Shown: positions 1 to 63,960, numbered from the stretch's first letter. The stretch is 64,000 nucleotides of DNA from Octopus vulgaris (GCA_951406725.2 OX597821.1:15004001-15068000), one strand, 5' to 3'. Notes: generated from the letters alone by a model not told the origin. Program-made: numbers and translations.

Positions 1-345
1 ACCCTCCAGATATACCATTTATCAGATATCTTGAGGAAATTTCGAACGTGGGTATTTTCCGATATTATTATTATTCCGGTCACTGGCTGGAATCGAAATC
101 TTGAGATTAGTAGCCCGCACTTTTAACCACTAAACCATATTACTATATGCACTAAGCCATATGCCCGTGGGCAATTATGGAGTGAATTCTAGGGTTTATA
201 AATCTAATATTTTCCTATCTTTCCTTAATACCGGTTCAACAAATGTTTGACAAACAACAATGTTTTGTTTATATTATTTACATTATTTACATCCTCATAT
301 TGTTTGTTGTTAACACAACGTTTCGGCTGATATACCCTCCAAGAG
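1..345 (-). mobile_element. Tandem repeat unit with tRNA-like Pol III head plus hammerhead-like motif (retrozyme/SINE-like), truncated by the window edge
   Basis: Minus strand: HHR 3' half cagcc-GAAA-CGTT-gtgtt plus tail (342->255), spacer, tRNA-like head with A-box tggtttagtgg and degenerate B-box (167->78), then ccacgttcgaaatttcctcaagatatCTGAT..ctggagggt (55->1). accctcca recurs at 1 and ~335. Homologous to 28256-28376. Confidence 0.6.
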
Positions 346-477
346 AAACAAAAATACGAACACACATTCAAATACACCCACCATATAAATGTATGCTTGT
401 ATGTACGTATCTCTCTATGTTTCTCCATCTCTCTCTCTCTCTCTCTCTCTCTCTCTCTCTCCGTATCTATCGATCTA

Positions 478-775
478 ACTACGATAGGCTTCCTTTAGTT
501 TCTGTCTGCCAAATCCACATACAAGGCTTTGGTCCAGGGCTGTGAACGGAATCATATATTTGGGAAGAAAACTGGGATCTTTTCCTTTTGATGGACGGAA
601 TTTTCTAGTTAACTAAACAATTTGAAACTTCGTATACTGGTAGAATGTGTCAAAAGAAAACATTATTGTAAACAAAATTGAAAACCAAACTGTAATTTGT
701 AAGTTTAACGTAGTTTAATTCTTCGAATTTTAACCAATGAAACGCCAGCATTTGAGCTTACCACACAGCCACATT
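478..775 (-). mobile_element. Degraded SINE-D 5' half interrupted by an unrelated ~185 bp insertion
   Basis: gtctgccaaatccacatacaaggcttt and cttaccacacagccac match the reverse complement of the SINE-D copy at 42547; 572-755 is foreign. Confidence 0.55.
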
Positions 776-1159
776 CATAATTAATAAAACAATTGAAAAA
801 GCGGTAATTTACAAAGAGAAAAATAAGCTCGAAATTATCACTATTGGTATTAGAAATCAGATATTAGATAGACATATTACTATTAAGTATAAATACGATT
901 TTATTTTGATTAAGCAAGGTGTTGCTAATGTATAGGCGAGACGTATCTGAAATTCATGTAATTTTGATGCATATTATTGGTGTAAATGAATATTCTACCG
1001 GAAATCAACCTATATATAAATAAAAAGTAAGCTAAAAATCCAATAGAGTATGAAAATAATATAATAACATCTGGAATAATCAGTAACAAGTTTAATACGT
1101 AATAAAGAATAGATTGGACTTAAAGATTTCTGATTTAGATACAGGGTTAGTAATATTTA

Positions 1160-1340
1160 AGGGAGAGCTTAGTCAATACCATTGACCCCCAGTACATACA
1201 CTTGAACTTAAATGTATCGACTTGCGAGGGATGAAATGCAAAGCTGACCCCGCTAGGATTTGAGATCAGAATGTTCAGAGATGGAACGAATACTGCAATG
1301 CATTTTTCTGACGTTCTCACGATTCTGCCACTTCTCTACC
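1160..1340 (-). mobile_element. Old SINE-B (Nin/Deu-domain-like) copy
   Basis: gaccccagtac...tatcgac...gatgaaatgcaaagctgacc similar to 41990-42217. Confidence 0.6.
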
Positions 1341-60329: not shown

Positions 60330-60365
60330 CTTTAACATTTCGAACCTACGCTCTTCCACAGAAAG
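60330..60365 (-). ncRNA. Degenerate minimal hammerhead motif, relative of 3933-3967
   Basis: cttt-CTGTGGA-a-gagc-gtag-gttc-GAAA-TG-TT-aaag. Confidence 0.45.
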
Positions 60366-61689
60366 GAACACAGAAAGAGACAAGGAGAGAAAATAAAGAA
60401 TGTGTAGTGGCATGCATGTATTTACCTATGTATACAAGTACATACATGAAATGATGGGTAGCAAAAAATGAAGAAAAAGAAAATATAAACAAATAGAGTG
60501 AGAAAGAAAATCGGTACAGACTGATAAACAGAAAGGCAGATAAGGAATCTTTTTCAAATGTATTTCAAAGAGCAGAGATCCAGTATAAATAGACTGCAGA
60601 AATGAATAGCCGATTTAATTTCTCTCTCTTTCTCTCTCTCTCTCATTCTTTCTTTTCTATTATTTTACTTATTTTTTCTTCAGATAAACTATTTCAACTA
60701 CTTTAACTAACATCTAAATACAGAAACAAGCTGACATTAACAAGCAGCAGCGAAAACAAAATCACAACTACGACCACCACAATCACCAACATCGCAATCA
60801 GCCCCACCAATAATAACTACATCACCAGCAGCAACAGCTATAGCTACAACAATAAATAGTAACACCATTAGTTAATAAAATAATAAATAAAAGAGGTCCA
60901 ATTTGAGCCACCGACTTGGCACCAGCATCAAATCAGTTCTTTCATAACTAAATTTTATTCAATTTTTCTGCTCAATTTAAACTTCAAAATCATAGATTTT
61001 CACTGGAAGAACAGATGGATGCTTTCTCCGAAATTATCTTTAATGATGTTTCTACATATCAGTTTTGTTATTGTTCTCTTTTTGTTATTTATCTTGTTTT
61101 AAATTTATCATTTTCCTCAGCATATCATGCTTATTAATGAAAATGATGGAAAACTATTTCGCTATGTTGGTGGCAGGAAGAAATTTTGTCGTTGTTGTTG
61201 TTGTCGTTGTTGTTATCAAAAACAAAACAAGAACAGAAAAGTAAGAGTAAAAGTATTGAAAATGCTCTGCCAAATTATGCACAAAACATAACTGAAAGAA
61301 TCTAATTTAGATGAAGGTGTTTATATGTCTATTTCTGAGCAGAGCGTTTACGAACTTAATCTGCAAAGTGAGTGATGAGACAGGGAAATAAGTAGGAAGA
61401 CAGAATTGAATAGAGTGAGAAAGAAACTGAGAAGTGTAGAAAGATGGGAGGAGAGACAGAAGAGAAAACAAGAGAGAAGAGAGAGAGGAGCGAGACGGCT
61501 ATTTAGCAAAATATCTTGGAGATATTCCGCTAGTTAGGATGATAATATTCTCGAAATCTCTTTAAACAATTACGACGGAAAATAGCAAACAAAACTATTT
61601 CCATAATATCCATACATTCTTAGCAACCACAGAGACTGTAACTATTTAATAGTAAAGATAATTGTTTACGTAATGTACACAACCATATA

Positions 61690-63090
61690 TACACATAGAC
61701 ATATTTATATCCATATATATATATATATATATATATATATATATATATATATATATATATATATATATATATATATAAAAAAAAAAAACATACACATATA
61801 TATATATATACATACATATATATATATACATACATATATATACACATACATATATATACATACATATAAACATACATATATATACATATATATATATATA
61901 CATACATACATATATATATATATATACATACATACATATATATATATATATATATATACATACATATATATATACATACATACATATATATATATATACA
62001 TACATATATATATATATACATACATGTATATATATACATACATATATATATATACATGCATATATATATATATATACGTACATATATATATATACATATA
62101 TATACATACATATATATATACATACATATATATATACATACATATATATATATATATACATACATATATATATGCATACACACATATATATATATATATA
62201 CATATATATATATATATATATCACTATCACGTGACCGACCAGACCATCAGATGTTGCTACACATCGCTGGTCACAATGCGTTCGCATTGTTTTAGCCTTC
62301 GAACGACGCCACCCCGCTGGCTAAGCGAGCAGGCCAACAGACGAAAGAGTGAGAAAAAGAGTGGTGAAAGAGAACAGCAGGGATCACCACTCCCTGCCGG
62401 TATTTGTGGAGCTTCTAGGTGTTTTTCGCTCAATAAACACACACAACGCCCGGTCTGGGAATCGAAACCGCGATCCTTCGACCGCGAGTCCGCTGCCCTA
62501 ACCACTGGGCCATTGAGCTTCGACACACACACACACACACACACACACACACACACACACACACACACACACACACACACACACACACACACACATACAT
62601 ACATATATATATATATATACATACATACATATATATATACATACATACATATATATATACATACATACATATATATATATATATACATACATATATATAT
62701 ATATATATAGATACATATATATATATATATACATACATACATACATATATACATACATACATACATATATATATACATACATACATATATATATACATGC
62801 ATACATATATATATATATACATACATATATATATATACATACATATATATATATATACATACATATATATATATACATACATATATATATATACATACAT
62901 ATATATATATATATATATATATATATATACATACATATATATATACATACATATATATATATATATATATTCATATATATATATATATATATATATATAT
63001 ATATATACATACATACATACATACATACATACATACATATATATATATATATATATATATATATATATATATATATACACATATATATAT
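61690..63090. repeat. Compound (TA)/(TACA)/(CA) arrays flanking a SINE
   Basis: Direct inspection. Confidence 0.95.
62221..62522 (-). mobile_element. SINE-A head with a third, different 3' tail
   Basis: 62345-62522 matches SINE-A; 62221-62340 differs from both other tails and ends in (gtgata)n. Confidence 0.85.
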
Positions 63091-63441
63091 CTACACGATT
63101 TTCAGTCGCCCCGATGCTTGGTTAAAACGGTAAAAAAGTATTGAGATATTGAGAAGGGTTTTCCGACTGGTTTTCCTTGATTATTAGGTACCTAGTCAAT
63201 AGGAATACGAATGATACCAATATATTAGGTAAATGTAAAGTGGAGAAAAATTGAAGGGGTGGGTTAAATAGACAGAGAAAAGCAAATCGAAAAAGGGGAC
63301 ACTTGGAGCAGATGGGATTTTCTGCTACGTTTCTTTCGATAAAAGAAAAATCTAACAAGAACAACTTATACTGCCACCTTCGCACTTACTTAATGAATAT
63401 ATATATATATATATATATATATATATATATATATATATATA

Positions 63442-63960
63442 ATCTTATAAGAAAGGGCTAAAGAAGATATTTCTAAAGCCAATATATATCCACTTATAAT
63501 CCACTTGCTACAGGAAAAATTGAACTGAAAATCGGGCAACTAACCTTTAGCAAATTTAAATTTCGTTATCTCTATATTGAATCAATTTCGGAATTAATCC
63601 TATAAAGGATACATTCTTCGTCAGTAGAGCTTACAAGGGAATATAAATAAAATACTCACATGCGTTTATGGAAAAAGCAGAAGCTAAAAACATAACTACA
63701 TTTAAGTACATCATTTATATCTAAAAATAAACATTCCTTGGTCAGTCTCAGAACAACCTGTTGACTTTTCGCCGCTACATCTTGTAATGGTTACCAGTCC
63801 CCTGTAAGCAAGCAGTAATGAGTTTACTACTAACAAATATAGGATGAAGCCCCTTAGTTGCCCGATTTTCAGTTCAATTTTTCCTGTAGAAAGTGGATTA
63901 TAAGTGGATAATCAGTATATTGGCTTTAGAAATATCTTCTTTAGCCCATTCTTCTAAGAT
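63442..63960. mobile_element. Fold-back insertion: ~100-bp inverted arms (63442-63542 / 63853-63960) with an HHR in the spacer
   Basis: atcttataagaaagggctaaagaagatatttctaaagccaat...atcgggcaactaa versus its reverse complement; abuts (TA)n on the left. Confidence 0.82.
63570..63629 (-). ncRNA. Type-I hammerhead ribozyme motif
   Basis: ctcta-CTGACGA-agaat-gtatcctttataggatta-attcc-GAAA-TTGA-t-TCAA-TA-tagag. Confidence 0.75.

Follow-up and report, generated by a model that had tools for sequence, protein, structure and literature searches.

Hammerhead ribozyme families in the Octopus vulgaris genome: Penelope-like elements, units without open reading frames and a lineage with an A6U core

Minimal hammerhead ribozymes (HHRs) occur in metazoan Penelope-like elements (PLEs). 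In the parts of the description covered here (PMC4209133), they are of type I, frequently have an extra base after A9, carry a palindromic stem III, include a U3-A8 variant and form many families per genome, with dispersed single copies and opposite-strand pairs. Here, eleven HHR layouts that an earlier note, made from the sequence alone, had listed in a 64-kb stretch of Octopus vulgaris DNA (C8:15004001-15068000, hereafter the window; assembly of 2.80 Gb in 227 contigs) were followed up computationally. The same features were found in the Octopus families, named below by the position of their window site, and the layout matches the PLE minimal-HHR consensus in the covered part of the PMC4209133 supplement, so that the overall phenomenon is of a known kind (Cervera 2014; Craig 2021; Li 2026). 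It is very probable that the sites belong to about ten families, each with one type-I HHR near the 3′ end, whose copies are dispersed and for the most part truncated, four of the families being linked to PLEs and two being units without an open reading frame (ORF) that are likely mobilised by the same proteins, with cutting predicted only for a pair of motifs joined through the palindromic stem III. What Octopus adds is a cephalopod-scale load, ORF-less units that resemble pseudo-long terminal repeats (pLTRs) and bear PLE insertion signatures, and a very abundant lineage with a fixed, apparently new U at core position 6 (A6U) under hammerhead-type constraint.

The Octopus ribozymes differ from those of PMC4209133 in number, size and core. 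The extrapolated canonical-core load of ~47,000 (25,000-80,000) compares with 2,000-9,000 HHR motifs reported there for Schistosoma, coelacanth and Xenopus, stem II reaches about 100 nt, and the family-wide A6U and U4C cores of Octopus are absent from the covered parts of that text and supplement.

Two PLE groups are relevant for comparison. Hydra-clade PLEs are defined in PMC8557442, as far as covered, by the motifs RWK, DKT, CxCx5C and CxxC/CxH, and share with the Octopus elements a C-terminal GIY-YIG domain, (TA)n targets and a 3′ HHR. A Hydra element with a hammerhead, Hydra-1_Obim of Octopus bimaculoides, is already known (PMC8557442 supplement, part covered). The 17794 family is longer than the Hydra PLEs described there (~5.3 kb with a microsatellite-rich untranslated region (UTR) and a pLTR of ~460 nt, versus <3 kb), and its HHR has a U4C core and a ~100-nt stem II, whereas that of Hydra-1_Obim differs in sequence and has a canonical core. 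Neptune/Nematis-type PLEs resemble the 60330 family in their reverse transcriptase (RT), CX2-5CxxC linker, C-terminal GIY-YIG domain with CCHH, partial tandems and (TA)n preference, but the Octopus lineage carries the A6U core.

Retrozymes without long terminal repeats (non-LTR retrozymes; PMC7229834; Li 2026; both covered in part) are likewise ORF-less head-to-tail units, a few hundred bases long, each having one type-I HHR, with low GC content, self-pairing as folded circles and a proposed pLTR origin, and a 2026 preprint traces vertebrate retrozymes to PLE pLTRs (10.64898/2026.07.22.740005, part covered). In contrast, the Octopus units, as seen in DNA, occur mainly as 1-1.5-mers scattered over (TA)n sites; they have inverted 5′ copies, and their minimal HHRs have a long stem II. 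Octopus is not mentioned in the main texts of PMC7229834 or the preprint, and among the papers listed by a literature search on hammerhead and Octopus, Craig 2021 and the paper on the giant squid genome were the only relevant ones.

Hammerhead layouts in the window and in the genome

The window has a GC content of 32% and abundant (TA)n repeats. No host exon or PLE coding sequence is evident within its 64 kb, and no tRNA gene was called. The HHR descriptor comprised stem I (at least 3 bp), the core, stem II (at least 3 bp, up to 130 nt, a bulge tolerated), GAAA, a palindromic stem III and UH; an earlier version returned one strict window site because no bulge was permitted in stem II, and the relaxed version was then adopted. 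The results showed that all 11 listed coordinates carry a type-I layout, as claimed, that three sites (38292, 58637 and 63570) pass the strict descriptor with a canonical CUGANGA core, and that five pass when U4C, U3-A8 and A6U cores are allowed, 3933 and 54633 being added. Against these three and five sites, 100 block dinucleotide shuffles of the window gave means of 0.03 strict and 0.13 variant matches (maxima 1 and 2). Rfam returned no match at the gathering threshold in any of eight family loci, and no hammerhead was among the matches listed (150 of 360) in an E-value scan of the window, where microsatellite miRNA matches dominate.

The earlier note had called the motifs unrelated, minimal and mostly still paired, and these descriptions held in part. 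Nine of the 11 sites are members of repeat families by genome searches and about ten repeat families are represented, with 54633 and 27043 having only 2-4 relatives each among the loci examined; however, 3933 and 60330 are related through a common AGAGC/GCTC/ACGT hammerhead. Several motifs are not small, stem II measuring 43-103 nt. The motif is intact at five sites, whereas the other six (6140, 17794, 27043, 28270, 34799 and 60330) are decayed or truncated; in each of these six, relatives elsewhere carry most or all of the motif. The broken state of these six, the family-wide A6U, U4C and U3-A8 cores and the ORF-less tandem units of two families had escaped the earlier note. Of the two remnants, 54443 belongs to a real family, of which it retains the 3′ half, whereas 15285 has no relative among the loci compared. 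A position beside microsatellites proved no better than chance (a microsatellite within 300 nt of 7/11 sites versus 53% of random positions) and was discarded as evidence, but the elements themselves do extend into (TA)n at their 3′ ends (TATATA in 24/30 copies versus 14% background). Among extra candidates, those at 14609, 15855, 22345, 23926, 27316, 28833, 52819 and 61120 have no relatives among the loci compared; 35777, 58246 and 59196 have relatives, in which the hammerhead layout was not seen.

First-look DNA searches with seven of the sites gave 267 to 2,492 candidates per site (3933 family: 894, identity 98-100%). The A6U pattern has 19,224 exact matches in the genome, the largest family counted; the CYGANGA sister pattern of the 3933 family has 14,638 (mostly CCG in the first 100 listed) and the 28270 family 2,843, with no match to the reversed pattern in any of the three. 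Since the variant cores of the window were picked once the families were known, 80 evenly placed 10-kb loci (800 kb) with six shuffles as control are the fairer test. This sample held 29 intact motifs: 14 canonical (shuffles 0-2), nine A6U (0-1) and six U4C (0); 13 other core classes gave 0-3 matches each, mostly near background. Extrapolation gives ~99,000 intact motifs of all kinds (95% range 65,000-143,000), inverted pairs counting twice, and a stricter pass over 1.8 Mb of overlapping loci gave 32 stem signatures, some of them variants of one family. The proposed dense, diverse and mostly non-coding HHR population is thus borne out genome-wide, but the local density implied for the window is typical of the genome: four canonical, U4C or A6U motifs were found where 2.3 are expected (P=0.2), and an HHR hotspot was rejected. 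The load is high yet has precedent, as Acropora, with a far smaller genome, has more than 6,000 motifs and axolotl up to 120,000 retrozyme copies (PMC7229834, part covered).

Penelope-like elements, ORF-less units and a possible mechanism

PLE coding sequence lies upstream on the same strand in the 17794, 6140, 58637 and 60330 families, three of Hydra-clade and one of Neptune/Nematis type, in agreement with the pLTR origin put forward in the earlier note. The 17794 family is linked at L136, L133, L085 and L135. L136 is a near-full element with one frameshift, an RT part of 458 aa and an endonuclease (EN) part of 397 aa; all four Hydra-clade motifs were recognised by visual inspection of the translated L136 and L133 sequences, CCHH is lacking and the target is (TA)n. 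Sequence is continuous (81%) from a GIY-YIG fragment to the 6140-family HHR in L077 and L079, and a Hydra-type EN is linked to the 58637 family in L213, the Hydra assignment of both families being based on EN fragments only. The 60330 family is linked at L214/L224, with L221 as a second case. L214/L224 is a partial tandem (ORF, HHR, part of the ORF, HHR) with YIDD, a CX4CxxC linker and GIY-YIG; the CSRPRCHTC linker, IYCISCSLC..YIG and two His of L224 assign it to the Neptune/Nematis clade pair only. Apparent ORF links in L132/L004, L142, L143, L144, L145, L146, L232 and L020 were rejected as neighbouring insertions. In L132, a Neptune-like PLE fragment at ~4220-4290 precedes a U3-A8 hammerhead of its own, in which stem II is very short; it belongs to none of the families of the window.

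A PF01541 search returned 6,136 candidates, many within 781-aa open frames. At L116, a full element with RT and GIY-YIG has 456-bp direct pLTRs at (TA)n; this apparently intact Neptune-type PLE (430-5672 of G000:C16:20834500-20842500) also has an extra 359-aa ORF upstream, a 3′ UTR in which CCAAT-like and TGACGTC motifs recur and a TATA box precedes the pLTR (read by eye), and a hammerhead-like motif with a U3-A8 core. Because many copies have 781-aa open frames, the L116 family is likely active, judging from sequence. The A6U-bearing lineage is ~29% identical to this intact 781-aa family.

The PLE insertion features seen are pLTRs, partial tandems, 5′ truncation and inverted 5′ copies; most sampled copies lack their 5′ part and have (TA)n at the end, often with an inverted copy alongside. 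The 38292 and 63570 families have no ORF link in 39 and 35 copies, respectively. In the 38292 family, 17/39 copies have a clean 427-430-nt period (428-nt unit), a count that leaves out six rows with microsatellite or unclear periods; most copies end near +215, some at +245 where the reference repeats, and those exceeding one unit run on into the unit's own 3′ sequence. In the 63570 family, the period is 475-494 nt in 13/35 copies (~490-nt unit), and four copies have two motifs one unit apart. Two or more complete units stand in tandem in L318, L333 and L335 of the 63570 family, and L022 starts just before the upstream GAAA; in the 38292 family this is seen only in L018, with a partial upstream motif. 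The longest ATG frame is 27-53 aa in four of the five tandem stretches and 130 aa in L018, and all five unit-length stretches, folded as circles, have predicted z values of -2.9 to -5.2. In the run contigs examined no supported circular joint is present, an observation without weight in either direction. Shared upstream matches (15 pairs shown per family) are consistent with inverted unit copies. On sequence grounds the two units fit the non-LTR retrozymes described in PMC7229834, as far as covered. The 3933 family, young and ~200 nt long, is a third form: no longer copy is present among 24 copies, and the family looks fixed-ended, as 0/24 share sequence more than ~85 nt upstream of the core (by eye).

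A mechanism can be proposed in which the PLE endonuclease would nick (TA)n and RT would prime on a TA-rich RNA patch, copying the 3′ end first; as RT would usually stop early, most insertions would hold a lone hammerhead. A lone motif may be unable to close stem III and hence be silent: the stem III palindromes are predicted to form no hairpin alone and a duplex of -1.7 to -12.5 kcal/mol. Given these energies and the literature, cleavage would take place in dimers, so that a tandem transcript would form a double hammerhead, which would trim the precursor or release unit-length RNA, and this RNA may circularise. The A6U and U4C lineages would be slowed yet still selected ribozymes. Many insertions extend across a cut site that is intact, which shows that their templates were uncut or re-ligated at that point. 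The 5′ pLTR of L136, the window copy at 54440 and L239, of different families, all begin at the AAAC that directly follows stem II on its 3′ side, with 7-11 nt left to the cut, and in these three cases RT may have stalled at the folded stem of uncut RNA.

Several observations count against this interpretation. The ORFs of L136 and L224 are not recognised by Pfam, being assigned by tblastn and motifs, and the 58637 link is seen at one locus. No convincing upstream ORF was found for the 3933, 27043, 28270, 34799 and 54633 families among 37, 0, 40, 10 and 7 blast matches, respectively, nor for the 54443 remnant among the copies examined; full-length copies of unlinked families are expected to be rare. 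Against a simple cut-then-copy model, several tandem copies extend across the cut site of the previous unit, 25/30 A6U copies keep the entire core, and the 5′ ends of these 30 copies do not accumulate at the cut; the starts of five lie downstream of the core, about 2-3 of the five being close to the cut. Stem covariation was found, in the form of compensatory changes between subfamilies, but amounts to very few independent events (3/9 pairs in A2, one divergent copy, and 1/9 pairs in A1, a G-C/C-G change at stem I). In the parts of the sources covered, published PLE minimal HHRs cleave poorly even as dimers (PMC4209133), and 8/9 Xenopus retrozyme dimers were uncleaved in vitro (Li 2026, 10.64898/2026.07.22.740005).

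The A6U lineage and competing explanations

Natural cores with single changes at positions 4, 3/8 and 6 have been described (PMC3088659, PMC7151607; covered in part): U3-A8 has been recognised as a compensation and U4C as a weaker variant from a viroid (PMC3088659). At position 6, the published case is a motif rare in occurrence and of phage origin, whereas A6U is fixed in an Octopus retroelement lineage of more than 19,000 copies. Among the window families, only 60330 departs from an invariant A6; 3933 and 17794 carry U4C, and the 3933 family is a sister lineage of the A6U family. The core of the 3933 family is CCGACGA in 15/15 copies; canonical-looking CTGACGA copies of this family may derive from a CCGACGA master through CpG decay, by which ageing copies could drift toward the consensus core.

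Position 6 is U in 33/33 A6U copies not selected by their core; these were anchored on a downstream motif or came from evenly placed loci, and are 33 of 43 anchored copies, the other 10 having no recognisable stem II. In these 33 copies, C3, G8 and A9 are invariant, position 7 is A/G/U/C in 12/6/9/6 and H17 is A/U/C/G in 24/7/2/0, base counts that go back to a few founder changes rather than to thousands of independent events. No hammerhead column (0/30) is less than 80% conserved versus 35/91 flank columns, stem II letters being in the filter and the flanks holding indels. In contigs of four runs with four organism labels, position 7 shows all four bases and H17 is A or U, while no second letter reaches 2% at position 6. 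An alternative register of the core (TTGAAGA, three bases later) was rejected because it would place U4 on a freely varying position and leave a gap between stems I and II. A reading of the copies as a fixed-ended short interspersed element (SINE) was also rejected, because 5′ ends vary and long copies reach the ORF.

On a reading to which we give even odds, one of the most successful Penelope-like lineages of this genome has fixed A6U in several subfamilies, with more than 19,000 exact copies, and has kept the other constraints (free N7, H17 never G, paired stems); the motif would therefore be either a new, selected active core (throttled, or dependent on another metal or on a protein) or a fold kept for a non-catalytic step of PLE retrotransposition. 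A fixed A6U core in a very abundant lineage is apparently unreported, in a literature scope without Lunse et al. 2017 and bioRxiv supplements: A6U is not mentioned in the main texts of PMC3088659 and PMC7151607, a search for 'hammerhead ribozyme' with 'A6U' matched only work on twister ribozymes, and the A6U and U4C core strings are absent from the two Cervera 2014 supplement files searched (PMC4209133; file 1 outside scope).

A competing explanation, which we hold possible though clearly on the less probable side, is that the A6U motif, and perhaps the U4C motif, no longer cuts, that its fold is kept for dimerisation or RT binding and that loss of cleavage favours amplification. Changes at A6 strongly lower Mg-dependent cleavage (A6C: PMC3088659; PMC7151607), the reduction in A6C being sharp and its Mn-dependent activity spared (PMC7151607); of 30 A6U copies selected by their downstream motif, 25 retain a complete core, each of them having U6; the highest two exact counts (19,224 and 14,638) are variant-rich versus 2,843 for a canonical family, with patterns of differing length; and HHR-less Naiads amplify well (PMC8557442). 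However, an H17 that is never G, a free N7 and invariant C3, G8 and A9 are the pattern of a cleaving hammerhead, and U4C stays active in vivo in a viroid (PMC3088659; these sources were covered in part). We consider it improbable that the 38292 and 63570 units spread as circular-RNA retrozymes through the RT of a long interspersed element (LINE) or another non-PLE RT. The lack of ORF links, the copies longer than one unit and the stable predicted circles would suit such a route, but, like the ORF-linked families, the units have inverted 5′ copies of PLE type and 3′ ends that are fixed and, in the copies listed, lie at (TA)n, and Xenopus retrozymes have been traced to PLE pLTRs (Li 2026, part covered).

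Domesticated host ribozymes that regulate neighbouring transcripts are a more improbable source still: although five window copies are intact and elements are present in contigs of runs guessed to be RNA, 6/11 copies in the window are broken, the tested families consist of dispersed repeats showing CpG-type decay, and the window lacks an evident host exon. Chance matches in AT-rich, low-complexity DNA have next to no probability and, at the 11 main sites, are refuted. The shortness of the motif, a U3-A8 class of 3 in the 800-kb sample versus 0-5 in its shuffles and the 15285 and 23926 remnants, without relatives among the loci compared, would fit chance, but the shuffle controls, the reversed-pattern controls (0 versus thousands) and the intact motifs in relatives of broken copies all speak against it.

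The role of the hammerhead in PLEs is stated to be unclear (PMC8557442, part covered). The Octopus genome holds cores of the canonical, U4C, U3-A8 and A6U kinds together with autonomous elements of Hydra and Neptune type that have open frames and with ORF-less tandems, all at high copy number, and a comparison of cleavage with amplification success would test whether PLEs need cleavage. If the A6U interpretation is true, either outcome would inform what PLE hammerheads do, and about half of the ~100,000 motifs of such genomes would escape canonical descriptors. A 2026 curated study of Octopus vulgaris repeats has 893 recently active 'unclassified SINE' families and, in the part covered, no mention of ribozymes or hammerheads; some of these families may be the HHR elements described here. 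The frequent inverted pairs would give long double-stranded RNA if transcribed. Cephalopods are known for heavy A-to-I editing, for which such RNA may matter.

Features of the window

Intact HHRs lie at 3933..3967(-), 38293-38365(+), 54633..54670(-), 58637..58697(-) and 63570-63629(-). The first is a minimal HHR with the U4C core CCGACGA, stem II GAGC/GCTC, the palindrome ACGT and a cut after GUU, in an element of ~200 nt at about 3835-4036(-) flanked by TA-rich repeats. The second, canonical with a 43-nt stem II, ACCGGT and a cut after GUA at 38359, belongs to about one unit (38110..38560(+)) of the ORF-less 427-430-nt head-to-tail element, with (TA)n at its end. The third has ACCGGT, a cut after GUA and the compensatory U3-A8 core TTGAAAA, which is present in this copy and in 3/4 other aligned copies. 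The fourth is canonical, with a 31-nt stem II, ACTCAGAGT and an inverted 3′ half at 58737-58807(+). The fifth, canonical with ATTGATTCAAT and a cut after AUA, lies in a partial unit (63442..63853(-)) of the ORF-less ~490-nt head-to-tail element, with an inverted copy from 63854 past the window end.

The decayed HHR of the 6140 family (6136-6228(+); U16.1 and stem I broken, family palindrome ACAGCTGT) belongs to a 5′-truncated 3′ UTR/pLTR of a Hydra-type PLE at 4966..6462(+), which extends nearly to the EN end of its PLE and has another repeat inserted at 5551-5938. A Hydra-clade PLE 3′ end at 17796..18345(+) includes the 17794 HHR remnant (17796-17918(+)), which starts within the core, cut by an inverted duplication; the inverted 5′ copy of the element (17231..17790(-)) yields a ~735-bp palindrome at 17432-18166. 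The HHR of this family is mostly CCGAAGA (U4C), with a ~100-nt stem II, ACAGCTGT and a cut after GUA. At 27044..27086(+), a decayed HHR with an intact core, the palindrome ACTTCGAAGT and a broken stem I has two relatives (73-75%). In the decayed HHR at 28276..28321(+), the core and G12 are mutated (family core CTGATGA, stem II GGCTG/CAGCC, ACGT), and a further 28270-family HHR, absent from the earlier list, is present as a 3′ half at 294..341(-). That at 34799..34901(-) belongs to an old family (72-79% identity) with a ~76-nt stem II and the palindrome ACGATCGT, and its stem III is altered. At 54440..54560(+) lies the 3′ half of another HHR family, from AAAC of stem III on, with an inverted piece at 54308-54360. 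A 5′-truncated pLTR of a Neptune/Nematis-type PLE at about 60240-60415(-) holds the A6U-family HHR at 60330..60365(-), with core CTGTGGA and decayed stems II and III; just 3′ of this element, a further decayed U4C-type hammerhead-like layout, also absent from the earlier list, lies at ~60040-60094(-) (core 60082).

Possible remnants with a GAA(A)CT(C/A)AGAGTA-type stem III lie at 23926(+) and 15285(+), both without relatives among the loci compared. Long inverted pairs from PLE insertions are found at 17432-18166, 58552-58864, 63442-63960 and 54308-54496. Very abundant SINE-like repeats, with matches in more than 100 loci examined, occupy ~10270-10750, 13830-14310, 18360-18670, 42530-43000, 50440-50980 and 55010-55620. 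Open frames with an HPPYSPD motif at 43089-43385(-) and 48644-48919(+) are presumably Tc1/mariner transposase remnants, which they resemble.

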